Positions 2,331 to 50,605 of a stretch of DNA of 64,000 nt are shown here, in pieces. The position numbers and the translations under genes were made by a program. Position 1 is the first letter of the stretch; each line of letters opens with the position of its first letter. A model generated the notes under the pieces. It saw only the letters and a program-made list of their open reading frames with translations, was not told the DNA's origin and did no database searches. Source of the DNA: Patescibacteria group bacterium (GTDB taxonomy: Bacteria; Patescibacteriota; JAHJAL01); assembly GCA_049322675.1 (NCBI GenBank), contig JBMORM010000017.1:3928-67927 (forward strand). The letters run 5' to 3'.

Positions 2331-2855
2331 ATGCAACACATCAATATCGAAATCAAAGCGAAAACCAATCGACAAGATGAGATTAGAGAAATGTTGAAAT
2401 CCAAGAAAGCGGATTTCAAGGGGGTGGACCATCAGGTAGATACTTATTATAATGTAAAATTTGGGCGGTTGAAATTGCGGGAAGGGGAAATTGAGAATTA
2501 TTTGATTCATTATGATCGGGAGAATCAAGTCGGTCCCAAACAGTCAAATGTTATTTTGTACAAATCTGATCCAAAATCTTCTTTGAAAGAAATATTGGTA
2601 AAGTCCTTGGGGGTTTTGGTGGTGGTGGATAAAATGCGGGAAATATATTTTATCGATAATGTAAAATTTCATCTTGATCTAGTTCAAGACTTGGGGACTT
2701 TTATGGAAATAGAGGCGATTGATGAAACGGGAAATATTGGTAAAGAAAAACTCCAAGCTCAGTGCGAGGAGTTTATTGATTTGTTTCAAATAAAAAAAGA
2801 AGATTTGTTGGCTGAGTCTTATAGTGATTTGTTGTTGGGGAAAATTGATAGTTAA
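2331..2855 (+). CDS. CYTH-domain protein (class IV adenylate cyclase / triphosphatase-like)
   Basis: INIEIKAK...DTYY...LKLREGE...YKSD...FHLDLVQDLGTFMEIEAI matches the CYTH/CyaB-type EIE-K...LR...E-E fold signature. Confidence 0.6.
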   Translation: MQHINIEIKAKTNRQDEIREMLKSKKADFKGVDHQVDTYYNVKFGRLKLREGEIENYLIHYDRENQVGPKQSNVILYKSDPKSSLKEILVKSLGVLVVVDKMREIYFIDNVKFHLDLVQDLGTFMEIEAIDETGNIGKEKLQAQCEEFIDLFQIKKEDLLAESYSDLLLGKIDS

Positions 2856-2878
2856 CAATAATTATTTAATTGATTTTT

Positions 2879-3448
2879 TTAGAATATGCTAGGGTATCCG
2901 CCGCTACTACAACCAAAAGTATTTAAATTGGAAGTGGGTTCAAGGAGGTAATCACTGTTAAATAGGGATTTGTCTGATTGATTTTTGGTTCCATCGGTAA
3001 TAACGTCTGTTGTCGTTTTTGTTGTAGAAAAGAAAGAAATTTCTATGTAGATTATTAATGACGAAACAAGAAACGTGATTGATATAATTTTGATGAATAG
3101 AAGCCAGTTGTCTGAGGCTGCTTTTCGGAGAAAAAACCAGAGAATAGCGAAGATAATTCCCCAGTAGAGGTAGGACATCCAGTAATTATTGTATGGGTTA
3201 GGTGATTGGCCCAGGGGTAAAAAATATATGTATTTTCCTAGAAATAATCCGAACAAAAGAGTGAGAGATATTGCGATATAAACATTATTGCTTGGATTAA
3301 AAATTTTATTTTTTTCTATAAGACTAATAATTAATTTGATTATAGCAATGATAATGATGACGTAAAAAACGATTGAGATAATAATTTGGAAGAATATATA
3401 CATTAATGGTGGTTGAGGAAAGGAAATACAGGCCAAAGTGGTGAGCAT
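2879..3448 (-). CDS. Hypothetical multi-pass membrane protein
   Basis: Several hydrophobic helices; convergent with the CYTH gene; no recognisable motif. Confidence 0.4.
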   Translation of the reverse strand: MLTTLACISFPQPPLMYIFFQIIISIVFYVIIIIAIIKLIISLIEKNKIFNPSNNVYIAISLTLLFGLFLGKYIYFLPLGQSPNPYNNYWMSYLYWGIIFAILWFFLRKAASDNWLLFIKIISITFLVSSLIIYIEISFFSTTKTTTDVITDGTKNQSDKSLFNSDYLLEPTSNLNTFGCSSGGYPSIF

Positions 3449-5907: not shown

Positions 5908-7146
5908 ATGCAACATAAATTTCCCAAAGGATTTTTGTGGGGGGCGGCTTCGGCGGCACATCAGGTGGAGGGTGGGCTGGTGAATGATTGGTCGAGGTGG
6001 GAGTTAAAAAGTGCTAATGACTTGGCTCGGCAGGGGAAAGAGCGTTGGAATGAAGAGAAAAGGAAATTATTTCCTGGGATTACTGAGTCAAAAAATTATA
6101 TTTCCGGCCGGGCTTGCGATCACTATCATCGGTACAAGGAAGATTTTTTATTGGCCAAGCAATTGGGGCACAATGCGACTCGGATTTCGGTGGATTGGTC
6201 ACGGATAGAACCGAGAGAGGGTGTTTTTGTCCAGAAAGAATTGGACCATTATCTGGAGGTGGTTAAGTATTTGGAAGAGATGGGGATTGAGCCGATGGTG
6301 ACGTTGTGGCATTGGCCGTTGCCGTTGTGGTTGGCGGATAAGGGTGGGTGGAAAGATAAAAAAACGGTGGAATATTTTGTCCGTTTTTCAAGAAAGGTGG
6401 TTAATGCATTGAAATCCAAAGTGTCATTTTGGCTGACTTTGAATGAGCCGGAAGTGTATGCGGCCAATTCGTATTTTATCGGAGAGTGGCCGCCACAGGA
6501 AAAAAATATTTTTTCTGCTTGGTCGGTTTTAAACAATTTGATTGCGGCTCATTGCCAGGTTTATGAGGCGATAAAATTTTTAGATAAAAAGGCGCGGGTG
6601 GGGTTGGCCAAACAGATGGCGTATTTTGAAAATGCTGATGGAAAATGGTTGACGCAGTTAGTGCAGGATGCCAAGGATTATTATTGGAACCAATATGTTT
6701 TGAAGAAAACTAAAGACAAGCTGGATTTTTTTGGTTTAAATTACTATTTTCACGAAAAACAGTTTGGGTGGGGAGTGCGAAATGATGATGAGAGCCGTTC
6801 GGATTTGGATTGGGAATTGTTTCCGCAAGGAATTTACAATGTTTTATTGGATTTGAAAAAATATGATTTTCCGGTTTATATAACAGAAAATGGTTTGGCA
6901 GATGCTTTTGATAAAGATCGAACGTGGTTTATTGAAAAGAGTTTGCAGGCAGTAGCTAGAGCGATGCAGCAGGGGGTTGATGTGAGAGGTTATTTGCATT
7001 GGTCGCTTACTGACAATTTTGAGTGGAATCGGGGATTTTGGCCAAGATTTGGTTTGATAGAGATTGATTATAAAACGTTGGAGAGGAAGATCAGGCCGTC
7101 GGCGTGGGAATATAAGATAATTATTAATAATGGGATAGGTGTTTAA
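5908..7146 (+). CDS. Glycoside hydrolase family 1 (beta-glucosidase/6-phospho-beta-glucosidase type)
   Basis: N-terminal FLWGAASAAHQVEGG, TLNEP acid/base and ITENG nucleophile motifs. Confidence 0.85.
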   Translation: MQHKFPKGFLWGAASAAHQVEGGLVNDWSRWELKSANDLARQGKERWNEEKRKLFPGITESKNYISGRACDHYHRYKEDFLLAKQLGHNATRISVDWSRIEPREGVFVQKELDHYLEVVKYLEEMGIEPMVTLWHWPLPLWLADKGGWKDKKTVEYFVRFSRKVVNALKSKVSFWLTLNEPEVYAANSYFIGEWPPQEKNIFSAWSVLNNLIAAHCQVYEAIKFLDKKARVGLAKQMAYFENADGKWLTQLVQDAKDYYWNQYVLKKTKDKLDFFGLNYYFHEKQFGWGVRNDDESRSDLDWELFPQGIYNVLLDLKKYDFPVYITENGLADAFDKDRTWFIEKSLQAVARAMQQGVDVRGYLHWSLTDNFEWNRGFWPRFGLIEIDYKTLERKIRPSAWEYKIIINNGIGV

Positions 7147-7297
7147 TTTCCAATTTTTCCCTCACGGGACCGAACTACTGCTGGCAATTTTCAATTTCCA
7201 AATATGTATTGATGGGTATTATAAATAATTTTATAAAACATTGAAGATTGGTAATTGGAAATTTTTTGAAAATTGAAAATTGAAAATTGGAAATTTT
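7147..7297. repeat. Repeat-family copy: TTCCAATTTT array + core ccctcacgggaccgaactactgctggc (7147-7203), about 50 bp spacer, inverted GGAAATT/GAAAATTG array (7254-7297)
   Basis: Direct reading; the same units recur at 7940, 10876, 11997, 12249, 16884, 17529, 19017 and 34013. Confidence 0.8.
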
Positions 7298-7872: not shown

Positions 7873-7939
7873 TGTTTCAATACTGTTACTTTATTTTTTG
7901 TTAGGTTAATTTTTTCTATACGATAGATTTATTGGTTGA

Positions 7940-8047
7940 GAAATTTTCAATTTCCAATTTTCAATTTTCAAAAAATTTCCAATGATCAATTTCCAAATAT
8001 CGAATTCTAAATATGTTTGAAAATTGAGAATTGAAAATTGGAAATTT
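7940..8047. repeat. Repeat-family copy: inverted pair of TTCCAATTTTCAA arrays (7940-7998 and 8018-8047)
   Basis: ttttcaatttccaattttcaattttcaaaaaatttccaa ... ttgaaaattgagaattgaaaattggaaattt. Confidence 0.8.
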
Positions 8048-8060
8048 GTGTTTTGTATGT

Positions 8061-8377: not shown

Positions 8378-8890
8378 ATGAAAATATCGAGGGGATTGAA
8401 TAAATTTTTGAATCTGTTGGTGGTGTTATCTATTGTTGGTTTAGTTGTGTATTTATTGGCGACTGCGTTTCGTAATGAGACAGAGTTGTTTATTGCGGAT
8501 TATGGGATGTATATTCTTTTGGTGATGACGGGGGTTTTGCTTGGTTTGCTGGTGGCTTGTTTTGTTTTGAGTATTATTAATTTTGTCAGATTTGCCAAGA
8601 CAAAAAATAAAGATTTTTTGTATAAAGCGTTGCGATATTTGTTTGTTTTTCCGGTGGTTGTGGTAGTTTTGTATTCGGTGGGGGTGTATGTAATTGATAG
8701 TATTTATCTGGATAGAAATATGCGGGGGCCGAGTGGAGGCTTTTCGACGTGTTATATGCCGGTTAGTTTAAATAAATTGGATTCGAATGTTGTTAATCAG
8801 AAAAAAAAATCGAGTTTGGCGAGTTTGACGGAAAAATACAAAAATAATATTCCAGCGGATGTTTTGGAAAAAATTGATCGGGTTAAATAG
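8378..8890 (+). CDS. Small multi-pass membrane protein, paralog 1 of 3 (C-terminal tail ...STCY...KYKNNIPADVLEKIDRVK)
   Basis: 3-4 TM helices; shares KxKxKDFLY..LRYLFVFPVVV and the C-terminal NN(I/L)PADVLEKIDR motif with 9293-9760. Confidence 0.6.
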   Translation: MKISRGLNKFLNLLVVLSIVGLVVYLLATAFRNETELFIADYGMYILLVMTGVLLGLLVACFVLSIINFVRFAKTKNKDFLYKALRYLFVFPVVVVVLYSVGVYVIDSIYLDRNMRGPSGGFSTCYMPVSLNKLDSNVVNQKKKSSLASLTEKYKNNIPADVLEKIDRVK

Positions 8891-8898
8891 GAGGATTT

Positions 8899-9240
8899 GT
8901 GAGGATTTCTAAAATAGTAAGCGTGTTATTGAAAATATTAATTTCTTTGTCATTTTTATTTTTATTTTTATTTTTTTTATTGCTCTATTTCCCGAGTATA
9001 TTTTCTGGTTTTCTTGATTCAAACGAAAATATTATTAAAGCGATGTTTGGGGTTTTAACATTAGTTTTGGGAGTTGGTTTTTTTATATCTTTTTCTTATG
9101 GTTTTGTCCTTTTAGTTCAATATTTCAAGAAAAAAGACAAGAAATATCTATCAGAATCATTGAGATATTTATTGTTATATTCTTTGCTAGTGCTTTTTGC
9201 TGATTTGATTGTTGTAACCATTGGGAGAGTTATTCTTTAA
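8899..9240 (+). CDS. Small multi-pass membrane protein, paralog 2 of 3 (GTG start; ends at tandem TAA TAA just before the conserved tail-coding motif)
   Basis: AGGAGG SD at 8889-8894, GTG at 8899; KKKDKKYLSESLRYLLLYSLLV aligns with paralogs 1 and 3; ADVLEKIDRG is encoded in-frame after two stops. Confidence 0.5.
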   Translation: MRISKIVSVLLKILISLSFLFLFLFFLLLYFPSIFSGFLDSNENIIKAMFGVLTLVLGVGFFISFSYGFVLLVQYFKKKDKKYLSESLRYLLLYSLLVLFADLIVVTIGRVIL

Positions 9241-9292
9241 TAAGCGGATGTTTTGGAAAAAATTGATCGGGGTTAATTTTTTGGGAGGGAGT

Positions 9293-9760
9293 ATGAAAGG
9301 TGCCAAGTGGGTAAATATTGTTCTGGGAATTATTTTGGGGAGTCCGTTGGTTCTATTGGTCGTTTTTAGTATTTGGGGATATATTGCGGACGATTTGGAT
9401 TATATTGATGGTTCGCAAGTAGAGAATCTGTATTTTACTTTGGTTAATTATCTATTGGGGATTGGATTTTTGATTTCTTTGATATATGGATTATATCTTT
9501 TGGGTAGATATATTCATAAAAAGGACAAAGAAATAATGCTATTGTCTTGGCGATATTTATTGCTATTTCCTGTGGTTGTTTTTTTGCTTTATTGTATTGT
9601 TGTTACTGTTCAGATGGTGATTGCTCAACCTGGAGTAACGTCGTGTTATATAATATCAGGCGACGTTAGTTGGAAAAGAGTAAATGAAAAATCAGATTTA
9701 TTAGCAAAATTTAAAAATAATCTTCCGGCGGATGTTTTGGAAAAAATTGATCGGGGTTAA
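9293..9760 (+). CDS. Small multi-pass membrane protein, paralog 3 of 3 (tail ...TSCY...FKNNLPADVLEKIDRG)
   Basis: GGGAGG SD then ATG at 9293; the ORF-track start at 9221 reads the junction repeat in another frame. Confidence 0.6.
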   Translation: MKGAKWVNIVLGIILGSPLVLLVVFSIWGYIADDLDYIDGSQVENLYFTLVNYLLGIGFLISLIYGLYLLGRYIHKKDKEIMLLSWRYLLLFPVVVFLLYCIVVTVQMVIAQPGVTSCYIISGDVSWKRVNEKSDLLAKFKNNLPADVLEKIDRG

Positions 9761-10763
9761 AGCCGATTTTAATCATTTTATTTATGAAGTGACGCCAAGC
9801 TGCAATCATGATTGCAGTTATTGTTATAATGTTTGGAAATATCGGGAATATCCTCAGGGACAATTGTTGGATTTGAGACAGTGGCAGGAAGTTACAGAGA
9901 GGTTGATGGAGCAGACAAATATTGGAACGGTTTCTATTTCCGGGGGAGAGCCGACTATATATCCGGATTTGGTGGTGTTGATCAAATATCTTCGAAGCAA
10001 AAAAATTAATGTCAATTTGTTGACCAACGGTAGCAATATTATTGAAGATTTAGCTAGAGAGTTGGTTGATTTAGATATTTCTATTTTTGAAATACCGTTG
10101 GTGGCGATAGACAAAGAATTGCACAAAAAGTTGAAAGGTCGGGATGATTATGATCAGGTGGTAAAAGGGATTGCTAATCTGACTTCTTTGGGAGCGACAG
10201 TTGTATCTGTCCTGGTGGCGACAAAAGATAATATTGATCAAAGCGCGGAAGTGGCGGAGTTGAGTATGGTTTTGGGTTGTCGGGGAATGATGTTCAATCG
10301 GATCAATCCGGCCAATAAAAAACAGATTGCTTTGATACCGTCAATTGAGCAAATCAAATCGGCGTTGGCAAAATTGGATATTATTTCCAATAAATATAAT
10401 TTTAGTATTAGCTGTTCAGTGCCGATCATGCCATGTTTGATCGATATGAAAAATTATAAAAATTTGTCCTATGGCTATTGCCCGGCCGGTGGCAAACGTT
10501 CATATCCGGTGATTGATTATTTGGGAAATGTGCGGGTGTGCAATCATTCGCCGAAAATATTGGGAAATATATTGGCGAAAGATTTGGATGATATTTTTTC
10601 GAAAAGTGAGTATTTTCAAAATTTTAAAAATTCATTTGCGGACAAGTGTCAGAAGTGTTCACTGGTTAAAGAATGTAAGGGTGGTTGTCGGGCGGCAGCG
10701 GAAGTGTGCTATGGTTGTTTGACAGATTTGGATCCGATGGCGAGGGAGAGGGGGAGTTTTTAA
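9732..10763 (+). CDS. Radical SAM enzyme with C-terminal SPASM-type Cys-rich domain (peptide-modifying maturase-like)
   Basis: CNHDCSYC (CxxxCxxC) near the N-terminus, GGEPT SAM-binding motif, C-terminal CPAGG...C...C..C...C..C SPASM-like cysteines. The start ATG lies inside the conserved junction motif. Confidence 0.8.
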   Translation: MFWKKLIGVKADFNHFIYEVTPSCNHDCSYCYNVWKYREYPQGQLLDLRQWQEVTERLMEQTNIGTVSISGGEPTIYPDLVVLIKYLRSKKINVNLLTNGSNIIEDLARELVDLDISIFEIPLVAIDKELHKKLKGRDDYDQVVKGIANLTSLGATVVSVLVATKDNIDQSAEVAELSMVLGCRGMMFNRINPANKKQIALIPSIEQIKSALAKLDIISNKYNFSISCSVPIMPCLIDMKNYKNLSYGYCPAGGKRSYPVIDYLGNVRVCNHSPKILGNILAKDLDDIFSKSEYFQNFKNSFADKCQKCSLVKECKGGCRAAAEVCYGCLTDLDPMARERGSF

Positions 10764-10875
10764 TTTATAAAAATATAGGTTGAAAAAAGTAGGATGTCGT
10801 CCTGGATATTGAAACGCCCAGTAGGGCTTTCAGTTCCAGGATGACACAATACAATCATTGATCATTCATTGATCA

Positions 10876-10917
10876 TTGGAAATTTTTTGGAAATTGAGAA
10901 TTGGAAATTGGAAATTT
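10876..10917. repeat. Repeat-family copy (GGAAATT orientation) embedded between two tcctgga-stem hairpins and 13-bp direct repeats ttccaggatgaca (10834-10846, 10957-10969)
   Basis: Direct reading. Confidence 0.75.
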
Positions 10918-10970
10918 CATCCTGGATCCTGGATAAGAAGCGTGATTACACTTTCTTTCCAGGATGACAT

Positions 10971-11243
10971 TTGAACAAGAGAATAATTGATATTTTTTTA
11001 ATGAAATATTCTATGGAAGAAATAATTATTTTTGTATTTAGGATAATCTTTGGTTTGGGGGCTGTGACTGCGATTTTTTTTCTTATTTATGGCTTGGTAA
11101 GATATTTTTTGTCACGTGGTGAAAAATATTTTCGGATGTTTGTTTTGTCATTAGTATCGTTGCTTATATTGTTTGCAATATATTCGGTGCTAGTTACTTG
11201 CAATGATTGTAATTGGCCAGAAAGTAATGCAATTATTAAATAA
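10971..11243 (+). CDS. Hypothetical small membrane protein (2 TM)
   Basis: Hydrophobic helices, ends CNDCNWPESNAIIK. Confidence 0.4.
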   Translation: MNKRIIDIFLMKYSMEEIIIFVFRIIFGLGAVTAIFFLIYGLVRYFLSRGEKYFRMFVLSLVSLLILFAIYSVLVTCNDCNWPESNAIIK

Positions 11244-11288: not shown

Positions 11289-12806
11289 ATGACAAATGAG
11301 AGGAGAAAATTTGTTCCTACCTGGTTTTTGACGATGTCACAGATATTTTTTCTGATGCTAATTTTTTGTTGGCCGTTGGGAACCAGATTGCAGTGGTTGG
11401 GTGAATTTTCATATTTGGGAGGTGTGATTTCTGATCTGACGACATATTTTGTTTATGTGACTGATATTTTGTTGGTATTGGTTATTTTGGGTTGGTTGAT
11501 TGATATAGCGATAAAATTTTGGCGATATGAAGATTGGGATGAATGGAATTTGAATCCGTGGCAGGGGATGGTGGTTTTGTTTTTTGGTGGTTTGGCCGGT
11601 TGGGGCTTGTATTCGACTGTGTGGGCGATGATAGATGAAATTGCTTTGTATAAAGGATTACGGTTGGTGGGGATGTGGTGGCTATTTGCATATATTGTGT
11701 TGGTTGTTGGTAAAAATAAAATTTTAATAAGAAATACTTGGTTGGTTGGGTTGGCGACATTGGGTATTCAAGCAGTTTGGGGGATAGCTCAATATATAAA
11801 ACAAAGCGGATTTGGTTTGTGGCAGTTGGGGGAAAGTATTTTGGGAAAAACGGTGGCGGGAGTGGCGAAAGTAGATGTGGATGGAGAGAAGATAATAAGG
11901 GCGTATGGATCTTTGCCGCATGCGAATCTTTTTGGGGTATTTATGTTGTTGGGACTAATTTTGATACTTGTAATATTAGTTTATTCTGGGTGCGGCAAAA
12001 ATTTCCAATTTTCAATTTTTCCCTCACGGGACCGAACTGTTGCTGGCAATTTTCAAAAAATTTCCAATTTCCAATTTTCAAAGAATACTTCAACAATTAT
12101 TTTGGGAGTGCTACTGGGACTATTTTTGGTAGGGATGTTGGTGAGTTTTTCAAGAAGTGTGTGGGTGGCGGGGATGGTGATAATGGTTGGAGCAATTGTT
12201 GAGATGGTTCGTAGGGGCGAGGTTTCCTCGCCAGGGGAAGGGAAGGGGAAAAATTTTCAATTTTCAATTTTCAATTTCCAAAAAATTTCCAATTTTCAAA
12301 CAATATTGATAGGGTTATTTATTTTGTTAATAGCGACAGGATTGAATTGGAAAGTAGTTATGGGGAGGTCTAGTTTGGATGTGGGGAATGATGTGTCTTT
12401 GCAGGTACGGCAGGTTTATGATCAGGGGGCGGATTGGATGATTGAAAAATTTTATTATGGCGGGGTAGGGTTGGGAAATTTTGTATTGGTGTTGCCGTAT
12501 TTTGCCGGTAAGGCCAATCTACAGTGGTGGCAATATCAGCCGGTTCACAATGTTTTCAAATTGGTTTGGTCGGAACTGGGCGTTTTTGGTTATATTTTGT
12601 TAATATTACTTATGGTTAGTATTGCAGCGATGATATTGTTTGATGATCAAAAAAAGTATCCCAAATATTTTTGGTTAAGTGTTATTTTGTCGATGATATT
12701 TTTGATGTTTTTTGATCATTATTTCTGGGATGTGTGGCAGGGGATGATGGGGTGGGCGGTGTTTCTGGGGGTTATGGTGGTTGGGGGAAGTAGTAAAAAA
12801 ACTTAG
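11289..12806 (+). CDS. O-antigen ligase/polymerase-family (Wzy_C) membrane protein carrying two in-frame repeat insertions
   Basis: SFSRSVWVAG and QPVHNVFKLVWSELGVFG motifs of the O-antigen ligase family; repeat copies at 11997-12083 and 12249-12300 translate in-frame. Confidence 0.6.
   Translation: MTNERRKFVPTWFLTMSQIFFLMLIFCWPLGTRLQWLGEFSYLGGVISDLTTYFVYVTDILLVLVILGWLIDIAIKFWRYEDWDEWNLNPWQGMVVLFFGGLAGWGLYSTVWAMIDEIALYKGLRLVGMWWLFAYIVLVVGKNKILIRNTWLVGLATLGIQAVWGIAQYIKQSGFGLWQLGESILGKTVAGVAKVDVDGEKIIRAYGSLPHANLFGVFMLLGLILILVILVYSGCGKNFQFSIFPSRDRTVAGNFQKISNFQFSKNTSTIILGVLLGLFLVGMLVSFSRSVWVAGMVIMVGAIVEMVRRGEVSSPGEGKGKNFQFSIFNFQKISNFQTILIGLFILLIATGLNWKVVMGRSSLDVGNDVSLQVRQVYDQGADWMIEKFYYGGVGLGNFVLVLPYFAGKANLQWWQYQPVHNVFKLVWSELGVFGYILLILLMVSIAAMILFDDQKKYPKYFWLSVILSMIFLMFFDHYFWDVWQGMMGWAVFLGVMVVGGSSKKT
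11997..12083. repeat. Repeat-family copy with core (ttccaattttcaattttt-ccctcacgggaccgaactgttgctggc-aattttcaa...) inside the ligase CDS
   Basis: Direct reading; no stop in the host frame. Confidence 0.8.
12249..12300. repeat. Repeat-family copy (TTTTCAATTTTCAATTTTCAATTTCCAAAAAATTTCCAATTTTCAA) inside the ligase CDS
   Basis: Direct reading. Confidence 0.8.
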
Positions 12807-12906
12807 CAAACGTAGCAAACATAACAAACACTTTGAAACGCTTTGAAACTCTTATAAACGCTTAAAAACTAAAAGATTGTTTTGTATTAGAATTAATTAG
12901 ATATTT

Positions 12907-13395: not shown

Positions 13396-14841
13396 ATGAA
13401 TTCTCTAACATACAAAGTAGCGTTAAATACAGTAGTTCAAACCATTGGTAAAGTGGTGGTGGTGGGGACTAGTATTGTGACGATTGGACTTTTGACCCGG
13501 TATTTGGGCCAGAAGGGGTTTGGTGAGTACACGACGGTGATGACTTATTTGGGATTTTTTGGGATTGTGGTGGATTTGGGGATGTATTTGATTGTGGTGC
13601 GGGAGATCGTGAAAGAGAAAGATCGAGCGGAAGAAATATTGGGCAATGCTTTGGGGTTGAGAATTGTTTTGGGAATTTTGGTTTTGGGTTTGTCGCCTCT
13701 TGTAGCTTGGTGGTTTTTTCCGTATTCGCATTTGGTTGATTGGGCGATTGGAATCGGAGCTTTGTCTTTTTTCTTTATCAGTTTGAATCAAATATTGGTA
13801 TCGGTGTTTCAGATTGATTTGCAAATGTGGAAATTGGTTTTGGGAGAGGTTTTCGGTAGATTGGCGATATTGGGTGGAACTTATTATTTTATTTTGCAAA
13901 AAGGAGATTTGCATAGTTTCTTGTGGGCCAATGTGGCGGGAAATGTTGTCTTATTTGTAATTACTTTGTTGTTCGCTCGCAAGTATTGTCGGATCAGACC
14001 CAGGTTTGAATGGAAAGCCTGGAAGCCAATGTTGGCAGAGACTTTGCCTTTGGCAGTTGTGGTCATGCTCAATCGGATTTATTTTAATATCGATACGATT
14101 TTTTTGTCGATTTTTAAGTCGCAGGAGGAAGTGGGTATTTATGGTTTGCCCTACAAGATTTTGGATATTTTGATCAGTTTTCCGTCAATTTTTGCTGGTC
14201 TGGTATTTCCGGCTTTTGCCAAGCATGCTTTGGAGGATAAATCGGAATTGAAGAGAGTATATCAAAAGGCTTTTGATTTTTTGTTGGTAGTGGCTTTGCC
14301 GATGTTTATGGGTTTATTTATGCTGGCAAAACCAATAGTGCATATTTTGGGTGGTGATGATTTTGGTGATTCGATAAATTTATTGCGTATTTTGTCGATG
14401 GCGGTAGTTTTTGTTTTCTTTAGTACTTTATCGAATAATTTGGTTATCGCTGTTCAAAAGCAAAAACAATTGATGACTATTTCTTTGATTTCGGTGGTCG
14501 TCAACGTTGTTTTAAATTTGTGGTTGATTCCCAAATATTCATATTTTGCCGCAGCGTGGATTACTGTTTTAACTGAATTTATAGTTACTGTTTTGTCCGG
14601 CTGGTTCGTGTGGCGATTTGTATCGATATTGCCAAATTTGAAGATAGGAGTGAAAAGTTTGATGGCTACTATGGCGATGGGTTTGTTTTTGTGGTTTTTC
14701 AATGAATTAAATTTTATAATTTTGGTAATGGCTGGAGGTATGGTGTATTTTGTGGTGTTGTATTTGATGGGTGGTTTGCCTAGGGAGGCGATGGAGAAGC
14801 TTTTGGGAAAAAAGATAGTGGAGAAGTTGGGGATTAGGTAA
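13396..14841 (+). CDS. wzx: Polysaccharide biosynthesis protein / Wzx-type oligosaccharide flippase (MOP superfamily)
   Basis: About 12-14 TM helices; the N-terminal ...TIGKVVVVGTSIVTIGLLTRYLGQKGFGEYTTVMTYLGFFGIVVDLG pattern is typical of flippases. Confidence 0.7.
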   Translation: MNSLTYKVALNTVVQTIGKVVVVGTSIVTIGLLTRYLGQKGFGEYTTVMTYLGFFGIVVDLGMYLIVVREIVKEKDRAEEILGNALGLRIVLGILVLGLSPLVAWWFFPYSHLVDWAIGIGALSFFFISLNQILVSVFQIDLQMWKLVLGEVFGRLAILGGTYYFILQKGDLHSFLWANVAGNVVLFVITLLFARKYCRIRPRFEWKAWKPMLAETLPLAVVVMLNRIYFNIDTIFLSIFKSQEEVGIYGLPYKILDILISFPSIFAGLVFPAFAKHALEDKSELKRVYQKAFDFLLVVALPMFMGLFMLAKPIVHILGGDDFGDSINLLRILSMAVVFVFFSTLSNNLVIAVQKQKQLMTISLISVVVNVVLNLWLIPKYSYFAAAWITVLTEFIVTVLSGWFVWRFVSILPNLKIGVKSLMATMAMGLFLWFFNELNFIILVMAGGMVYFVVLYLMGGLPREAMEKLLGKKIVEKLGIR

Positions 14842-14842
14842 T

Positions 14843-14877
14843 AGGTTCTAGGTTCTAGGTTCTAGGTTCTAGGTTTT
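14843..14877. repeat. Heptanucleotide tandem repeat (AGGTTCT)x4 plus a degenerate fifth unit, in the wzx-GT2 intergenic/promoter region
   Basis: ataggttctaggttctaggttctaggttctaggtttt read directly. Confidence 0.9.
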
Positions 14878-14898
14878 AGATATTAGGTGATAGGTAAT

Positions 14899-15924
14899 AT
14901 GGGGACAATGAATAATATTGATGTTTCGGTTATTATTGTCAGCTACAATTGTAAGAACTACTTAATAGATTGTTTACGGACAGTTAGTGACGATATTGAT
15001 GGGAGTGGTTTAAAAGTTGAAGTGATTGTGATTGACAATAGTCCCAATGACGAAACGGTGGAAATGTTGAAAACTGAGAAATATGGATGGTTGAAGTGGA
15101 TAAAAGCGGAAAATCGGGGTTGGGGAGCGGCCAATAATGTTGGTTTGAAAATCGCTCAGGGTAAATATTTGTTTCTTTTAAATCCGGATACTGTTGTGGA
15201 AAAGGAAACAACACGGTTTTTGTTTGATTATTTAGAAAAAAATAATTGGGTGGGCTTGGTTGGTCCGAGGATGATTTTTGGTGATGGCAATTTGCAAATT
15301 TCAGCTTATGACAATTATCCGGGGATTATTTCGGCTTTTCTGGAAAACACTTTGTTGGACCGGTTATTTTATTGGTTGTTTCCCGAGACTATCTATCCGG
15401 GAAAATTATTTTCTAAAAAGTTGCATGATAGAAAAAGGGAGGTGGCTCATTTGCTAGGTGCAGTGATGTTTATGCGGCGGGAGATATATGAGCAGACTAA
15501 AGGTTTTGATGAACAATTTTTTATGTTTCGGGAGGAGACTGACTGGCAGTTTCGAATGAAGCGGGCGGGGTGGAAGATTGTTTATAATCCGGAGATAACA
15601 GTGACACATTTTGAAGGGGGGAGTACGGGTGAAGCGAGGCGGAAAAAAAATTGGCAACGCAAGCTGGATATGTATTTGCCGTCAGTTTATAAATACGAAA
15701 AAAAATGGGGTGGGTGGCTAAAAGCGATTGTGGTTGGTTTGATATATTTTTTTGGTTCGATTTGGACTTTATTAATTTTGGGGATCATCTGGTTGTTAAA
15801 CAATGCTTTTGGTTGGGTGGTGAATAATTGGCGGAAAAAAATTAATCGTTCGATTGCGGATATTGCGATTTATCATTGGGCGATTATTATTTGGCATGTG
15901 AGATATTTGGATAGATGGTTTTGA
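14899..15924 (+). CDS. Glycosyltransferase family 2
   Basis: VSVIIVSYNCKNYLIDCLRTV...VIVIDNSPND (GT2 Rossmann N-terminus), DxD-like region, C-terminal TM helices; AGGTGA SD before ATG 14899. Confidence 0.8.
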   Translation: MGTMNNIDVSVIIVSYNCKNYLIDCLRTVSDDIDGSGLKVEVIVIDNSPNDETVEMLKTEKYGWLKWIKAENRGWGAANNVGLKIAQGKYLFLLNPDTVVEKETTRFLFDYLEKNNWVGLVGPRMIFGDGNLQISAYDNYPGIISAFLENTLLDRLFYWLFPETIYPGKLFSKKLHDRKREVAHLLGAVMFMRREIYEQTKGFDEQFFMFREETDWQFRMKRAGWKIVYNPEITVTHFEGGSTGEARRKKNWQRKLDMYLPSVYKYEKKWGGWLKAIVVGLIYFFGSIWTLLILGIIWLLNNAFGWVVNNWRKKINRSIADIAIYHWAIIIWHVRYLDRWF

Positions 15925-16375: not shown

Positions 16376-17524
16376 ATGAAAATTGCGATTGATTATCGGG
16401 AGGCGATACGGGAGAATAAAGCCGGGAAGGGGGTGGTGGTTTGGCAGTTGGTGGACAGATTGAAAAAGATCATTTTGGATGATGAGGTGGATTTGCTGGT
16501 GGATGAGGATTTTGTTTTTGAGGATTTTCCGGCCAATTGGCATAAAAAAATAATTGGTGGGAAAGGATTGAAATGGCATTGGAACGTTTGGCGGAAATTG
16601 AAAAACTATGATCGGTATTTGTCTTTGACCAGTTTTTTGGTGCCGGCGTTTGATTGGAATAAAAAGTGTATTATCTTTGTTCACGATTTGGTGGTGTTTT
16701 ATGATGAATTGGCGAAGAAACACAATCGGAAAGCGTATTGGATGGAACGATTGACATTGGGTGCAGCTTTGAAAAAGGCGCGGAAAATAATTGTGCCGTC
16801 AGAGACGACGGGGGAGGATTTAAAAAAGTTTTTTAAAGTTGACGAAAATAATTTTTCTTTGGTTTATGAGGGAGTTAACATTCAAAATTTCCAATTTCCA
16901 ATTTTTCCCTCACGGGACCGAACTGCTGCTGGCAATTTTCAAACATATTTTGATGAAAATATTGGGGAGATAAAAAAGAAATTTGGGATTACTGGTGATT
17001 ATTTGTTTTTTGTGGGGACTTTGGAGCCGAGGAAAAATTTGTCGAATTTAATTTTGGCATATGATAAATTGGTTAAAAAATACGGATGGGAGGGGCAGTT
17101 GGTTTTGGCTGGAAAAAAGGGTTGGTATTTTGATGAACTTTTTACTTTAGTAAAGAAACTGAATTTGGAAAAGAAAGTTATTTTCACTGGATTTACGACG
17201 GATGAAGAAAAATTTATTTTAATAAAAGACGCGAAGTGTTTTTGTATGGTAAGTCGATATGAAGGTTTTGGGTTGCCGATACTCGAGGCGATGTCGGTGG
17301 GGACGCCGGTGGTGACGAGTAATAATTCCAGTTTGTCGGAAGTGGCGGGGGAGGCGGTGGTTTTGGTGGATCCAGATAATGTTGAAGAAATCGCCAGCGG
17401 AATTCAAAAAGTATTGTCTGATAAAGTTCTGGCGGATAGTTTGGTTAAAAAGGGAATGGAGAGGATAAAATTGTTTGACTGGGAAAAAGCGGCGGGGGAA
17501 GTGTATAATTTAGTTAGGGATTAG
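16376..17524 (+). CDS. Glycosyltransferase family 4 (GT-B) carrying an in-frame repeat insertion
   Basis: FFVGTLEPRKN...LVLAGKKGW...MVSRYEGFGLPILEAMSVGTPVVTSNNSSLSEVAG are GT4 motifs; repeat at 16884-16943 is in-frame. Confidence 0.85.
   Translation: MKIAIDYREAIRENKAGKGVVVWQLVDRLKKIILDDEVDLLVDEDFVFEDFPANWHKKIIGGKGLKWHWNVWRKLKNYDRYLSLTSFLVPAFDWNKKCIIFVHDLVVFYDELAKKHNRKAYWMERLTLGAALKKARKIIVPSETTGEDLKKFFKVDENNFSLVYEGVNIQNFQFPIFPSRDRTAAGNFQTYFDENIGEIKKKFGITGDYLFFVGTLEPRKNLSNLILAYDKLVKKYGWEGQLVLAGKKGWYFDELFTLVKKLNLEKKVIFTGFTTDEEKFILIKDAKCFCMVSRYEGFGLPILEAMSVGTPVVTSNNSSLSEVAGEAVVLVDPDNVEEIASGIQKVLSDKVLADSLVKKGMERIKLFDWEKAAGEVYNLVRD
16884..16943. repeat. Repeat-family copy with core (ccctcacgggaccgaactgctgctggc) inside the GT4 CDS
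   Basis: Direct reading. Confidence 0.8.
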
Positions 17525-17528
17525 AGGG

Positions 17529-17643
17529 AAATTTCCAATTTCCAATTTTCAAAAAAGGCTTAATTTCCAATTTTCAAACAAAATTCATTGGAAATTGGTC
17601 ATTGAAAATTTATTGGAAATTGAGACTTGGAAATTGGAAATTA
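17529..17643. repeat. Repeat-family copy: inverted pair of arrays (17529-17577 TTCCAATTT orientation; 17588-17643 GGAAATTGG orientation)
   Basis: Direct reading. Confidence 0.8.
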
Positions 17644-17659
17644 TTTTCTATAAATTATT

Positions 17660-19033
17660 TTGAAATTATCTTTCATAAATAAATATTCTTTGTTTTATTG
17701 TTTGGCTGGATTTGGCTTGTTGCTTTTGTATGCTTTGTTGTCGGTAATCGATGTAAAATTGGCGATGGGAGTGATGGGGGCGGGGATATTATTTTTTCTG
17801 TTTTGGTTGGATCTTAGATGGGGAATTGTGGTTTTATTGTTATCGGTTTTGTCGGGTCAGATTGTTCGTTTTAGTTTTGGTTCGGCGGCAATATTGCCTT
17901 CGGATGGAGTAATGGTGGTATTGTTATTGGTCTGGATTTTGAAAATACTGGTAGAAAAGAGGAAATTGGTATTTGATGTTACAATTGTTTCCTTGCTGGT
18001 ATTTTGGGTGGTTAGTCTGGTAATAAATTTGGCGATTGTGGATCGTTATGAACTCCAGCAACAGAAGACGATTTGGCTATATTGGTTAAGATTGATTATT
18101 TATTCTACTTGTTTGCCGATAACTATGAATATTGTTAATTGGTATGGCGAACAAAAGAAATTTTTTAGATGGTTTATTTACCTGGGATTGGCGTTTTTGG
18201 TTTTGGGTTTTGTGCAGTTGGTGATTTTGCCTGATATAAGTTTTTTAACGGATTATGGCTGGGATCCTCATCAGGGGAGATTGCTTTCAACTTTTTTGGA
18301 TCCCAATTTTGCCGGAGCGTTTTTGATAATATGTTTTGCGGTGAGTTTTAGTATGTATTTCGGGCAAGTAAAATGGAATAAACAGAAATTATGGTGGATA
18401 GTATTGAGTGGATTATTTTTGGGTGGAATTGTTTTGACTTTATCTCGTAGCGCTTTGGTTTCTTTGGTTTTTGTATTTGGTTGGTTAGCGTGGTGGTGGG
18501 ATAAAAGATTGTTGTTGTTTGGTTTATTTACTTCAATTACTTTGTTGATCAATGATCAGAGGTTGATGCAACGGGTGGTGGGGATAGTGGAATTTGATGA
18601 AACAGCAATGTTGAGATTGCAATCCTGGAATGATAGTTGGCAGATTGTGCAAGATAATTTTTGGACGGGGATTGGGTACAACGCTTTGTCGTTTGAACAG
18701 TTTCGTCGGGGCATAATTACTGATATCAATGTTCATTCGGCGGGCGGATCGGATAGTAGCTATTTGACAATTTGGACAACTCTGGGGTTGATAGGACTGT
18801 TTTTTTGGCTTTTGATTTTTGTTTTTTTTGTGTCTCGATCGATAACGATGTATTGGAAAGAAAAAAAAGATCAGAGTCAGAAATTTTTGATTTTGGGAGT
18901 GGTGTTGGCGGTTTTGGGAGTAATGATTCACGCTCAGTTTACCAATAGTATGTTATATGTGCATATTATGATTCCGGTTTGGTTTTTGATGGGAGTAGTG
19001 CTGGGAGGAAAAGATAAAATTTCCAATTTCTAA
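17660..19033 (+). CDS. O-antigen ligase/polymerase-family membrane protein (second paralog); start uncertain
   Basis: LTLSRSALVSL and HSAGGSDSSYLTIWTTLGLIGL (H...YL...LG..G) motifs; the last codons (KISNF*) are encoded by the palindromic repeat. Confidence 0.55.
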   Translation: MKLSFINKYSLFYCLAGFGLLLLYALLSVIDVKLAMGVMGAGILFFLFWLDLRWGIVVLLLSVLSGQIVRFSFGSAAILPSDGVMVVLLLVWILKILVEKRKLVFDVTIVSLLVFWVVSLVINLAIVDRYELQQQKTIWLYWLRLIIYSTCLPITMNIVNWYGEQKKFFRWFIYLGLAFLVLGFVQLVILPDISFLTDYGWDPHQGRLLSTFLDPNFAGAFLIICFAVSFSMYFGQVKWNKQKLWWIVLSGLFLGGIVLTLSRSALVSLVFVFGWLAWWWDKRLLLFGLFTSITLLINDQRLMQRVVGIVEFDETAMLRLQSWNDSWQIVQDNFWTGIGYNALSFEQFRRGIITDINVHSAGGSDSSYLTIWTTLGLIGLFFWLLIFVFFVSRSITMYWKEKKDQSQKFLILGVVLAVLGVMIHAQFTNSMLYVHIMIPVWFLMGVVLGGKDKISNF

Positions 19034-19088
19034 TTTTTAATTTTTAAACATATTTTGTTTAGAAATTAAAAATTAGAAATTAAAAATT
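19017..19088. repeat. About 70-bp imperfect palindrome variant of the repeat family (tttccaatttctaatttttaatttttaaac-atatt-ttgtttagaaattaaaaattagaaattaaaaattt), ending 7 nt before the next gene start
   Basis: Direct reading; close homolog at 34013-34082. Confidence 0.8.
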
Positions 19089-19094
19089 TGGTTT

Positions 19095-20381
19095 ATGATT
19101 ATTTGGTTGTTGGTTGCTATTTTTTTAGTGATTACTTACCTGTTGGCGAAGGAAGATTTGTTGTGGGCGATTGGTTGGATGATATTTATGGCGCCATCAT
19201 ATATTGTGAGATTGAATTTTTTTGGGATTCCAACCAATGCTTTGGAGTTGGGTGTTTATGTTGTGTTTTTGGTGTGGATAATCAGAATAATTAGGGGTAA
19301 GAGTATTTTTCGCTGGAGAAAATTTTATTGGTTGCCCTTGATTTTGCTTTTTGTAGCTTTGATATCGATAATTTTGGTTGCTGATGACCGAAAAATGTCG
19401 TTGGGTCTTTGGAAAGGATGGATTTTTGATCCGATTTTGATTTTTTTGATTGTGAGTTGCGAATTTAGGAAGTTGGCGCAGATTTCATGGATAAAAAGTG
19501 GATTTTTGTTTTTGGTAGGGATGTTGGGAACAATCGGAATATGGCAATGGTTAACCGGAAATATTGATACGGTGGATGGTCGTTTGGCGGTGTTTTTCAC
19601 TTCGGCCAATTATTTGGCAATGCTGTTGGCTTCGGGTTTGAGTTTTTTGTTGGCTGGTTTTTTGATGGAAAAAAAGAGAAAATGGTGGGAAATATTTTTT
19701 TTGGTTTTAGGACTTTGGGCCTTGATTGCTTCGGGCTCATTTATAAGTGTATTTGCATTAGTCTTGACGGTGGGTTGGATGGTTTTGGCGGGATGGCAAA
19801 AAAAAGGAAATGTAATATTATGGGTGATATTTGGTTGTGTTTTAGTGGCGGCGATATTTTTTGGGACTCAAATCGGCTCAGAGAGAATGTCAAATATGCT
19901 GGATTTAAGCAAAAGATCGTCGGTGACAGTTCGGATGCAGGTTTGGCAGACGGCGTGGGCAATGGTGGCGGACAATCCTGTTGTTGGTATTGGTTTGGGA
20001 AATTTTGAGAAAAAATATATTGAGTATTTACCGTCAGTAGTTGCCAATCCTTTGGAATGGCGGATGCTGCATGCGCATAATTTTTGGCTACAAACTTGGC
20101 TAACTATGTCTATCTTTGGATTATTGGTGTTTTTGATGATAGTTATTTATAGTTGGTGGTTGGGAATGAGAATGATAAAAAGGTTAGAAAAACAATTTTG
20201 GGTAGTCTATGGGTTAATGGGATATTTATTGTCATTTGTTTTAGTCGGCTTGTTGGATACTCCTTATTATAAAAATGATTTTTCGTTGATTTTTTGGATA
20301 ATGATTGGTTTGTTGATAGCGTTGACAAAAATTTTACAGAAAGAAAAAAGATATTTGAAAAAAATGGGGAAAAAGATATGA
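19095..20381 (+). CDS. O-antigen ligase-family membrane protein (third paralog)
   Basis: LDLSKRSSVTVRMQVW...GIGLGNFE...HAHNFWLQTWLTMSIFGLL, the classic Wzy_C signature. Confidence 0.7.
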   Translation: MIIWLLVAIFLVITYLLAKEDLLWAIGWMIFMAPSYIVRLNFFGIPTNALELGVYVVFLVWIIRIIRGKSIFRWRKFYWLPLILLFVALISIILVADDRKMSLGLWKGWIFDPILIFLIVSCEFRKLAQISWIKSGFLFLVGMLGTIGIWQWLTGNIDTVDGRLAVFFTSANYLAMLLASGLSFLLAGFLMEKKRKWWEIFFLVLGLWALIASGSFISVFALVLTVGWMVLAGWQKKGNVILWVIFGCVLVAAIFFGTQIGSERMSNMLDLSKRSSVTVRMQVWQTAWAMVADNPVVGIGLGNFEKKYIEYLPSVVANPLEWRMLHAHNFWLQTWLTMSIFGLLVFLMIVIYSWWLGMRMIKRLEKQFWVVYGLMGYLLSFVLVGLLDTPYYKNDFSLIFWIMIGLLIALTKILQKEKRYLKKMGKKI

Positions 20382-28335: not shown

Positions 28336-29202
28336 TTAGAGCGGAAAAATAATATCTTTGTTTGTACTGGTTTGGAGAATCTGAATATTTTTTTGGTTGA
28401 GTAGATTGATTGTTTTTTGACTGGGATGATTGAATCGGTTATTCTGACCGCAGGAAATTATAGCAATATCGGGCGATGTGGTTTCAATAAAACTGTTGCT
28501 TGTGGCTGATTCTGAGCCGTGGTGCGCTATTTTTAAAATATCAACATTTATGTCTTGTTGATATTTTTTTGTGAGGGAAATTTCTATGTTTTTGGAAATA
28601 TCTCCGGTGAGCAGGATTTTTTTATCTTCAGTTGTTTTGTTTAATAATAAAACCAACGAATTATCATTGAGGTCATTTACTAGTGGTGGATTTTGGTTAA
28701 AAGGGTAGAGAATGTTCAAGGAATATTTGTCGAATAAAATTTTTTGGGGAAAATAACCGTAAAATATTTCCGTATTTTGGTTTTTTGCTAAGGAAATTAG
28801 ATTTTCCATGAGTGAATTGGAATCGGAAATTTTGGGTATGAGTAATTTGTCGATGTGGTAGTTTTCGAAAACAAAGAAAAGACCTGTGATGTGGTCTTCG
28901 TGAGGATGAGTAAGGATCATTAGCTCGATATGCCGATCATATGGCAAAAGGATATTTGATAATTTGTTTAGAACAGCATTATCTGGTCCGCCATCAATTA
29001 GAATTTGTTGCTGATTTTTGGTATTTATTAAAATGCAGTCTCCTTGTCCGACGTCCAAAAAAGATATTGTAGGTTTGATTGGTCGATTTAGCCAAAGGAG
29101 ACAGATGCCTAGAATACAATTTAAAGCAAGGAGGGTGGCTAATATTTTATTGAGTTTTTTTAGTGCCGAGAGATTTTGGGTGGAATGCTTGGTGATAGAC
29201 AT
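28336..29202 (-). CDS. comEC: ComEC/Rec2 C-terminal part (TM helix + metallo-beta-lactamase domain); separate ORF, split from the N-terminal part
   Basis: FLDVGQGDCILI...ILIDGGPDN...LTHPHEDHITGL; overlaps the N-terminal ORF by 56 nt in another frame. Confidence 0.7.
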   Translation of the reverse strand: MSITKHSTQNLSALKKLNKILATLLALNCILGICLLWLNRPIKPTISFLDVGQGDCILINTKNQQQILIDGGPDNAVLNKLSNILLPYDRHIELMILTHPHEDHITGLFFVFENYHIDKLLIPKISDSNSLMENLISLAKNQNTEIFYGYFPQKILFDKYSLNILYPFNQNPPLVNDLNDNSLVLLLNKTTEDKKILLTGDISKNIEISLTKKYQQDINVDILKIAHHGSESATSNSFIETTSPDIAIISCGQNNRFNHPSQKTINLLNQKNIQILQTSTNKDIIFPL

Positions 29203-33964: not shown

Positions 33965-34014
33965 TTTTCCCGGCTATGATTCTGCATATATGAAAAGAGT
34001 TGTAGCCGGGAAAA
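33965..34014 (+). terminator. Hairpin with perfect 12-bp stem (ttttcccggcta ... tagccgggaaaa) after hsp20
   Basis: Direct reading; followed by a T-rich stretch. Confidence 0.6.
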
Positions 34015-34082
34015 TTTCTAATTCTTAATTTTTAATTTTTAAACTATTTTTGTTTAGAAATTAAAAATTAAGAATTAAAAAT
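34013..34082. repeat. About 70-bp palindromic repeat-family variant (aaatttctaattcttaatttttaatttttaaac-tattttt-gtttagaaattaaaaattaagaattaaaaatt), 48 nt upstream of dnaK
   Basis: About 90% identical to 19017-19088. Confidence 0.8.
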
Positions 34083-34130
34083 TAATAATTAATTCTGTTA
34101 TTTATCTGTTTTAAATATTTAAGAGGTTTT

Positions 34131-36786: not shown

Positions 36787-36846
36787 TCTAGTTTAGAAAT
36801 TTGATTGTTGCAGGGCAGAACAGTGTTCTGCCCCTAAGTTTATTTT

Positions 36847-39398: not shown

Positions 39399-39436
39399 AA
39401 CTCTTATTAATTTCAGTTTGTAAGAGTTTGTAAGGG
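39381..39436. terminator. Bidirectional terminator hairpin (cccttagaaactctt ... aagagtttgtaaggg) between convergent genes
   Basis: 15-bp stem with one mismatch; overlaps the stop of the 38040-39398 gene. Confidence 0.6.
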
Positions 39437-41865: not shown

Positions 41866-42104
41866 TTTTTTTCTTGCCAAGAACGTGTTTTGACTGTTAA
41901 GATGTTATTGTCGCTGTTTAGGTATGCAGTGATGTCTTAAAAAAATACAAGTTTCAAGTACCAAGGCTCAAGTTTCAAGATTTCGAATGTATTTACACAA
42001 AAAAATTGTCGCAGAAATTTTTTTGTAGAGGAGGAGGCGTTCTGGTGGTGAAGTGAGAGACAGTATGTCTGGCTCGCACGCAACGTTAAGAACGACTTTG
42101 ACGA

Positions 42105-50533: not shown

Positions 50534-50605
50534 TATGTTTGTGTTTTAATGTTATTTGATAATAATACTTGATACTTAGCATTTGATACTTGATAATTAA
50601 TGTAG

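Follow-up and report, generated by a model that had tools for sequence, protein, structure and literature searches.

In-frame copies of a mosaic repeat in two envelope-glycan genes

We found that a short dispersed repeat, made of 7-nt AATTTYC units, with an optional GC-rich core of 32 nt in their midst and in some cases an adjoining short GC hairpin, occurs in frame within an O-antigen-ligase-like gene and a GT4 glycosyltransferase gene of a Patescibacteria metagenome-assembled genome (MAG). The analysis was confined to 64 kb of one contig of this MAG (the window, i.e., the whole stretch of DNA analyzed), together with homologs and syntenic loci from other assemblies. Overall, the repeat is probably a selfish or neutral mosaic element that is translated into tolerated, disordered protein loops, resembling Rickettsia palindromic elements (RPEs) in its behavior.

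The repeat (here family A) is strongly over-represented in the window. Allowing at most one mismatch, TTCCAATTTTCAA was found 21 times against 1.34 expected, and arrays of at least three AATTTYC-type heptamers were found 15 times (4 of them within coding sequences), compared with none in shuffled sequences. The 32-nt core TTTTTCCCTCACGGGACCGAACTNNTGCTGGC has three copies in the window (7154-7185, 12016-12047, and 16902-16933), and the window and related contigs together yielded 10 core-bearing copies from at least four genomes, which could be aligned without gaps. All 10 share a sharply bounded 58-nt unit, AAATTTYCAATTTYCAA-TTTTTCCCTCACGGGACCGAACTGCTGCTGGC-AATTTTCAAAC, with mean pairwise identities of 96.4% in the core, 90.6% over the whole unit, and 33% in the flanks. 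The arms are AT-rich heptamer arrays beginning AAATTTCC, and in the sense orientation (CAATTTY units plus core) they contain zero stop codons in any frame. Window sites are clustered, with eight of nine inside 11.8 kb (P about 3e-4). The family is real and lineage-restricted, occurring in a small clade of Patescibacteria. A full-text search, of incomplete literature coverage, returned no published reports of such repeats in Patescibacteria, or candidate phyla radiation (CPR) bacteria.

The two host open reading frames (ORFs) and the repeat segments within them are as follows (folding z-scores in brackets).

11289..12806, + strand: WaaL/O-antigen-ligase-like (Wzy_C) polytopic membrane protein, 505 aa, assigned from its NCBI name, PF04932 in its homologs, and a fold match
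11997..12089, + strand: ligase insert 1, aa 237-267, consisting of a heptamer array, the core (12016-12047), and further heptamer arrays; reads KNFQFSIFPSRDRTVAGNFQKISNFQFSKN; unstructured (z +0.32)
12216..12232, + strand: perfect GC hairpin GGCGAGG-TTT-CCTCGCC (GGCGAGGTTTCCTCGCC), aa 310-315, translated as RGEVSSP; 5' module of the loop-2 insert
12248..12304, + strand: ligase insert 2, aa 320-339, a heptamer array lacking the core; reads KNFQFSIFNFQKISNFQ; unstructured (z +1.31)
16376..17524, + strand: GT4 glycosyltransferase, 382 aa, the second host gene (AlphaFold pLDDT, the per-residue confidence score, 92.7)
16883..16943, + strand: in-frame copy with the core (16902-16933), aa 170-190, in the GT4 inter-domain linker; reads NFQFPIFPSRDRTAAGNFQ (z -0.40)

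The ligase ORF reads SGCGKNFQFSIFPSRDRTVAGNFQKISNFQFSKNTST and SPGEGKGKNFQFSIFNFQKISNFQTILIG, one on each side of SFSRSVWVAG. An original prediction, drawn from the letters of the DNA, had described this ORF, its frame, and the two peptides around SFSRSVWVAG, one with the core, exactly as we found them. It had covered both ligase copies but missed the GT4 copy, the translated hairpin at 12216-12232, and the non-palindromic nature of the intragenic copies. The protein is listed at NCBI as 'MAG: O-antigen ligase family protein [Patescibacteria group bacterium]', encoded on a contig of 68.7 kb. Its Pfam Wzy_C match (17 bits) is below the cut-off of 31.7, and from P0006 on, most homologs have PF04932. 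The AlphaFold model, based on 62 homologs (pLDDT 88.9; predicted template modeling score 0.90) predicts a WaaL-like polytopic fold, and the single significant Foldseek match in the PDB was the WaaL O-antigen ligase 7tpg_B (E 1.2e-5). Residues R204, R289 (nearly invariant), R374, and H420 are conserved across the alignments of the ligase family.

Both inserts are lineage-specific and located in loops, as the original prediction had expected of an alignment with homologs. In a conservation alignment of 62 sequences, 59 of which were counted as deeper homologs, the only stretches held by fewer than 30% of these 59 were aa 242-256, 311-317, and 329-335, i.e., the inserts. Leaving the termini aside, pLDDT fell below 50 only at residues 251-256, 259-261, and 321-326 of the model, and these residues sit in two coil loops, 234-264 (between helices 212-233 and 265-286) and 312-329 (between helices 289-311 and 330-352). 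The inserts thereby flank a helical hairpin whose turn bears the nearly invariant Ser288-Arg289. Both insert loops would be cytoplasmic if Arg289 faces the outer catalytic side as in WaaL. Insert 2 is 90% identical to the intergenic copy at 7938-7989, and the perfect GC hairpin upstream of it is one of three such hairpins in the 64 kb and is kept in the syntenic loci L001 (= MAG CTOTU29514) and L003 (GCA_016294905.1). We also considered whether loop 2 could have arisen by gene fusion, with a former intergenic spacer becoming translated, and rejected this reading since every homolog is continuous across the loop.

In the GT4 protein, the insert lies in the linker between the two Rossmann domains, which spans 37 aa in the window compared with 20-21 aa in 42 of 64 homologs, and it is the sole low-pLDDT stretch of the model. 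Its placement is based on the family alignment and the AlphaFold model, as the PDB sequence alignment spans the C-terminal domain only and not the insert. The residues YFDENIGEI that follow the insert were considered as a degenerate right arm, and this was rejected because they align to native residues of homologs.

The three intragenic segments have several properties in common. They are one-armed, sense-oriented, 57-93 nt long, and non-palindromic, with folding z-scores from -0.4 to +1.3. Each is open in all three sense frames, bearing out an earlier claim that the element is stop-free in the three forward frames; among length-matched random segments of the window, just 1.7-5.6% have this property. 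Stops do occur on the antisense strand. Intragenic copies are filtered for orientation and frame. When calculated without the insert segments, the ratio of nonsynonymous to synonymous substitutions (dN/dS) against the closest ortholog was 0.09-0.14 for both host genes. For the ligase it was 0.136 against L001 and 0.137 against L003 (85% and 74% identical to the window protein, respectively), with all family-invariant residues retained, and for GT4 it was 0.088 and 0.264, respectively. These values indicate host genes that are intact and under purifying selection, and for the ligase, the intact ORF and a dN/dS of 0.14 agree with the original view of a single gene, rather than a pseudogene or two separate genes.

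Two observations on the surroundings of the ligase gene may be added. Three Wzy_C/O-antigen-ligase-like paralogs (11289-12806, 17660-19033, and 19095-20381) belong to a single envelope-glycan cluster that also includes a flippase, a GT2 protein, a NUDIX protein, and GT4; this arrangement is kept in L001 and L003, with internal repeat inserts only in the first paralog. In addition, tandem arrays with periods of 9 and 10 nt (AAACATAGC, AAACGCTTTG) occur at 12799-12870 and, in related form, at 39368-39412. The former begins in the final ligase codons and continues beyond the stop, and the L003 ligase ORF extends C-terminally into such an array (NLSNVANISNPLKRF).

Polymorphism of the insert sites among orthologs

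Comparison with syntenic loci from other assemblies (L001, L003, L026, L027, and L028) showed that orthologous insert sites are polymorphic and that turnover between sister genomes is fast. The presence/absence polymorphism foreseen in the original prediction was found at both ligase sites, together with replacement of whole modules. In loop 1, the window ligase has the core, L001 has a single AATTTTCAA unit and no core, and in L003 a diverged core precedes a GGGCAGAAAATTTTCTGCCC hairpin. Relative to L001, the additional 42 nt in L003 are bounded by 9-nt direct AATTTTCAA repeats, which are the element's own heptamer motif. In loop 2, the situation is reversed, with the 32-nt core present in L001 and L003 versus a 23-nt array in the window, a 9-nt difference that preserves the frame; L028 carries an (AAAACTC)n array there, translated as TQNSKLKTQN.

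The GT linker is similarly variable. It contains family A with the core in the window and family A without the core in L026, and it is empty in L003 and in 42 of 64 homologs. In L001 and L028, the linker is occupied by family B, which has the same plan, (GGTTCTA)n-GAGGGGAGAGAGAAGGGAGA-(AAAACTC)n, and in L027 by (CAAATGA)n-core-(CAAAACT)n. All orthologs examined at the insert sites are in frame, the differences being multiples of three or swaps of whole modules.

Two other sequences found in these orthologs also occur between genes in the window. A second heptamer family, (TAGGTTC)n with about nine units, lies at 14835-14899 between the flippase-like and GT2 genes, overlapping a listed GTG start; in-frame translated copies of this family occur in the L001 and L028 orthologs of GT4 and in an RsmE gene (L010). 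A GC hairpin stem, GGGCAGAA...TTCTGCCC, is intergenic at 36813-36833, in terminator position after the ORF 36070-36786, and the same stem is translated within ligase loop 1 in L003 (~10700-10720).

Copies in other genes and genomes

Scanning genome contigs for the core gave three true matches, all in one MAG, and two chance matches, while 5 of 16 loci from a metagenome scan were true. Through these DNA scans, in-frame copies were found in an RsmE-like gene (L010) and in a gene for leucyl-tRNA synthetase (LeuRS; L019, which shares its MAG with L003). When 1.84 billion representative proteins were searched exhaustively with a profile, only two further carriers were added, both TsaD (P0241 and P0242). 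A composite three-frame peptide query against a 5.8-billion protein index had no match and missed the source protein too, such an index being unsuited to short low-complexity queries.

The RsmE, LeuRS, and TsaD segments are all insertions relative to solved structures. RsmE gains about 20 aa, and LeuRS has a net gain of 9 aa compared with Thermus thermophilus LeuRS. TsaD P0241 is 507 aa long versus 330 aa for Thermotoga maritima TsaD, to which it aligns in five blocks separated by four query-only gaps of 42-53 aa that hold the repeat peptides; these four inserts are known at the protein level only. In P0242 (L025), the element occupies the same loop as the second insert of P0241, in a different frame.

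Across these genes, the core is read as FPSRDRTAAG (ligase, GT4, RsmE, and TsaD), FSLTGPNCC (LeuRS), or FFPRGTELLLAIF (TsaD), which are exactly its three sense-frame translations, so that openness in all frames is matched by use of each frame in one gene or another. Most frequent is the hydrophilic one, and its prevalence may reflect selection for peptides compatible with loops. Conservation of the core at the nucleotide rather than the peptide level would have one of three causes, namely recent spread, gene conversion, or a function at the DNA or RNA level. As a separate observation, the LeuRS of GCA_016294905.1 (L019 ~2850-3400) has an extra alpha/beta-hydrolase-like segment of ~170 aa (ALLIHGFEGSG...GHSLGS) after the CEHCK zinc motif.

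Intergenic copies

The usual location of family A is in spacers between co-directional genes, where a pair of oppositely oriented arms can fold into a long, AT-rich hairpin. These intergenic palindromic copies are 80-152 nt long, with folding z-scores from -2.9 to -8.4. Copies in the window were located as follows.

7146..7297, no strand assigned: palindrome with the core (7154-7185) in its left arm, starting at the stop codon of a GH1-like ORF (z -2.92)
7938..8050, no strand assigned: palindrome with arms 7941-7972 and 8016-8047 (91% complementary), just upstream of tRNA-Arg (z -3.70)
10864..10920, - strand: single arm in reverse orientation, located between genes and nested within a different repeat
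17526..17647, no strand assigned: palindrome immediately 3' of the GT4 stop codon (z -5.10)
19014..19093, no strand assigned: T-type (C-to-T) palindrome that gives the ORF 17660-19033 its final residues KISNF and stop (z -8.35)
34009..34097, no strand assigned: T-type palindrome upstream of a DnaK-like gene (z -8.21)

The site orthologous to 7146..7297 in L004 holds a copy of different build. Differences between the T-type and C-type sequences are C-to-T changes in three of three cases in the copy at 19014 and five of six in the copy at 34009, which fits the extreme depletion of C on the + strand (C 11.9%, G 25.1%; GC skew about +0.4 window-wide). The T-type, a decayed variant, carries TAA stops; it is confined to intergenic positions, apart from providing the stop codon for the ORF 17660-19033. 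Stems remain paired, with 6 of 25 pairs altered on both sides, a count based on four sequences only, the fourth of which joins the arms 7938-7970 and 8016-8050 through a manually shortened version of their 43-nt interior. Reverse arms as a source of -35 boxes and hairpins as intrinsic terminators were also considered, and both ideas were dropped as counts of promoter and terminator consensus sequences equaled the shuffled expectation.

The repeat in which the arm at 10864..10920 is nested is of a separate kind. It is MITE-like (i.e., resembling a miniature inverted-repeat transposable element) with 16-bp terminal inverted repeats (TIRs; TGTCATCCTGGAACTG / CAGTTCCAGGATGACA) and was found downstream of GT4 in L001 (9060-9230) and L028 (5330-5480), with a related copy in the window at ~10795-10972, between a radical-SAM gene and the ORF at 10971. 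Other intergenic arrays with 7-nt periodicity (AATTAAC and its complement, CAAGTTT, and ATACTTG) were found at 25575-25605, 39580-39607, 41948-41984, and 50565-50595. In this genome, spacers in general seem to be marked by heptamer periodicity. The arrays at 41948-41984 and 50565-50595 lie upstream of tRNA-Lys and tRNA-Pro, as family A does just upstream of tRNA-Arg at 8060.

Spread of the repeat and alternative explanations

Intragenic copies would arise when a sense-oriented, one-armed copy whose length is a multiple of three enters a permissive loop, leaving the gene intact. That surviving one-armed sense copies leave the gene intact is explained by the sense arm being stop-free in all frames. 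Selection would eliminate all other intragenic insertions, and those tolerated would be transcribed and translated with the host gene, adding disordered residues to a loop as selfish or neutral passengers rather than functional domains. Turnover is most likely caused not by classical cut-and-paste transposition but by recombination or template switching at heptamer microhomologies common to dispersed arrays, because identical heptamer flanks enclose different modules, copies lie close together, and the window lacks a transposase or REP-associated tyrosine transposase (RAYT). Pfam scans of 41 window ORFs detected neither enzyme and only an Xer-type tyrosine recombinase (47017-47919). Here, we infer neutrality and the mode of spread, as well as mobility, the last from the distribution and polymorphism of copies.

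Several points weigh against this reading. Passage of translation through the inserts is deduced from intact frames, and the nucleotide conservation of the core across three frames could signify a function of the DNA or RNA instead of selfishness. A mobilizing enzyme may be encoded outside the 64-kb window, and the 9-nt AATTTTCAA direct repeat at L003 loop 1 also fits a target-site duplication and thus true transposition. The census is small, comprising about 10 core copies in at least four genomes and two further proteins among 1.84 billion representatives. Moreover, all sequences compared derive from short-read metagenome assemblies, in which repeats are error-prone.

An unlikely, though not negligible, alternative is that the repeat is a non-autonomous transposon of the classical MITE type, mobilized in trans by a transposase encoded elsewhere in the genome and duplicating AATTTTCAA-like targets. 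In favor of this, one sharply bounded unit recurs among unlinked genes and across several genomes, the arms of the palindromic intergenic form resemble TIRs, and the 9-nt direct repeat surrounds the extra 42 nt of L003 loop 1 relative to L001. However, intragenic copies have no TIRs, the apparent duplication is ambiguous, being the element's own heptamer, and both loop 2 and the GT site show replacement of modules between the same flanks, not plain insertion or excision. The only recombinase in the window is the Xer-type enzyme. The core was also not found in viral contigs, which gives no support to a phage vector.

The main rival holds that the repeat, chiefly its 32-nt core, is a functional nucleic-acid signal (e.g., for protein binding, RNA processing or stability, or internal regulation) and that the peptide is incidental. 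We regard this as improbable, although the core is 96% identical over intergenic copies and three reading frames, while synonymous sites of the host genes are 34-63% diverged (pS 0.34-0.63; dS 0.45 to 1.36, versus 96.4% core identity between copies). Intergenic stems are furthermore preserved by compensatory changes, and copies are found where genes end and immediately 5' of tRNA genes. Nonetheless, the core is freely lost, swapped, or missing at orthologous sites, and the hairpin conserved in intergenic copies is missing from intragenic ones. An Rfam search of all copies at gathering and relaxed thresholds matched no family, promoter- and terminator-like sites are not enriched, and the high identity is equally explained by recent spread or gene conversion.

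It is very unlikely that the heptamer tracts mediate phase variation, with slipped-strand mispairing in such contingency repeats turning surface-polysaccharide genes on and off. Such a role would suit a unit length of 7, which is not a multiple of 3, the three perfect TTTCAAT units at 12255-12275, and hosts that are cell-envelope glycan genes (the ligase-like protein and GT4), which are classic targets. Yet the tracts are imperfect and have at most four units, orthologs are all in frame and differ by multiples of three or whole modules, and the element is also found in housekeeping TsaD, LeuRS, and RsmE; a slip would in any case not truncate the protein within the tract, as the element is stop-free in all frames.

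That the inserts are assembly artifacts (repeat-induced MAG chimeras) or that the hosts are decaying pseudogenes is hardly credible. Repeats do cause misjoins in short-read metagenome assemblies such as those used here, but identical insert sites were found again in independently assembled NCBI, ENA, JGI, and Logan contigs, and the ORFs are intact (dN/dS 0.09-0.14) with all family-invariant residues kept. There is little support for removal of the segments before translation.

A bolder extension of the mosaic-repeat reading, which we consider doubtful, starts from the array-core-array plan common to at least three sequence-unrelated cassettes in the same loops of sister genomes. This plan might represent a new, transposase-independent class of CPR mosaic element, in which arrays serve as landing pads for recombination or template switching and cores are the cargo, so that loops of essential proteins are continually remodeled and an unknown factor recognizes core DNA or RNA. 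If so, one TsaD enlarged by 50% would be an example of loop remodeling, and the near-invariance of the core would reflect recognition at the DNA or RNA level.

Comparison with known repeat systems and implications

The behavior of the repeat is close to that of RPEs and Wolbachia palindromic elements (WPEs). RPE-1 to RPE-3 and WPEs are known as 'protein-coding palindromes' (Ogata et al. 2000, 2002, 2005, as summarized in PMC10969869, PMC3767692). RPEs are 100-150 bp long and palindromic even when coding, and the sites of RPE-1 to -3 are mostly conserved among Rickettsia species (PMC10969869, PMC3767692), whereas RPE-4, -6, and -7 exhibit a hotspot pattern, with different element groups at the same orthologous site (PMC3767692). 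Like RPEs and WPEs, family A is a short dispersed repeat of a reduced-genome bacterium that is found between genes and in frame inside unrelated, often essential genes, where its peptide is placed at an exposed loop, the host ORF stays intact, and different element groups occur at one orthologous site. The resemblance to RPEs noted in the original prediction therefore applies to behavior (the in-frame colonization of genes) but not to membership: intragenic copies in the window are 57-93 nt long, one-armed, and non-palindromic, falling outside the RPE length range and palindromic structure. The repeat is also built differently, from 7-nt-periodic arrays around an optional core, with one unit translated in all three frames, and unlike RPE-1 to -3, it turns over fast between closely related genomes. 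Its host phylum is Patescibacteria, and there is no indication of sequence relatedness to RPEs or WPEs, from which we set it apart by description rather than by comparison of consensus sequences.

Bacterial interspersed mosaic elements (BIMEs), which are combinations of repetitive extragenic palindromes (REPs) in Escherichia coli, and Neisseria intergenic mosaic elements (NIMEs), which are dRS3-flanked segments, are likewise mosaic and are essentially extragenic. REPs themselves are GC-rich palindromes of 20-40 nt, headed by GTAG or CGTC and mobilized by RAYT transposases. Family A shares with BIMEs and NIMEs a modular structure of short repeats around interchangeable segments, a location in co-directional spacers, hairpin potential, and probably variation by recombination at short repeats, and differs from these elements and from REPs in having intragenic copies and AT-rich tandem heptamer flanks, with no RAYT in the window. 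Intragenic MITEs (ERIC, BOX, Nezha, and others) have defined TIRs, target-site duplications, and often a parent insertion sequence (IS), and produce sporadic in-frame fusions (PMC10969869). Family A is similar in being a small non-autonomous repeat that is sometimes tolerated in ORFs as a translational fusion, and dissimilar in lacking TIRs on intragenic copies and a transposase in the window, as well as in the presence of four inserts in one TsaD (P0241).

Repeats that enter coding sequences in frame have hitherto been treated as a peculiarity of Rickettsia and Wolbachia, and the patescibacterial case would be independent and differently built. As a second small-genome, probably symbiotic lineage, it would support the idea that weak selection admits selfish DNA into essential genes (TsaD, LeuRS, and RsmE). 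The inserts may also serve as a source of new loop sequence, of which these loci would be a very recent record, with orthologs 74-85% identical differing module by module. How the repeat spreads can be tested directly, as filled, swapped, and empty sites are available from close relatives. There are practical consequences too. For annotation, the ligase with its inserts scores under the Pfam threshold, and the lengths of CPR proteins are inflated; for assembly, such repeats are likely to break or confuse MAGs.

Other features of the window

Strand asymmetry extends throughout the window, with a GC skew of +0.18 to +0.49 in every 2-kb bin and no switch, and 43 of 58 crude ORF calls are on the + strand. 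A ComEC gene on the - strand (28336-30622) is seemingly split into overlapping ORFs for the Competence domain (29147-30622) and the metallo-beta-lactamase domain (28336-29202), and the gene could be genuinely split, or a frameshift or assembly error could be responsible. At 8378-9760 lie three neighboring ORFs for small membrane proteins, the first and third of which share a 55-nt 3' end encoding ADVLEKIDR (89% identical). The second has a weaker 3' copy (64% identical), and the third overlaps the start of a radical-SAM/SPASM gene (9732-10763).

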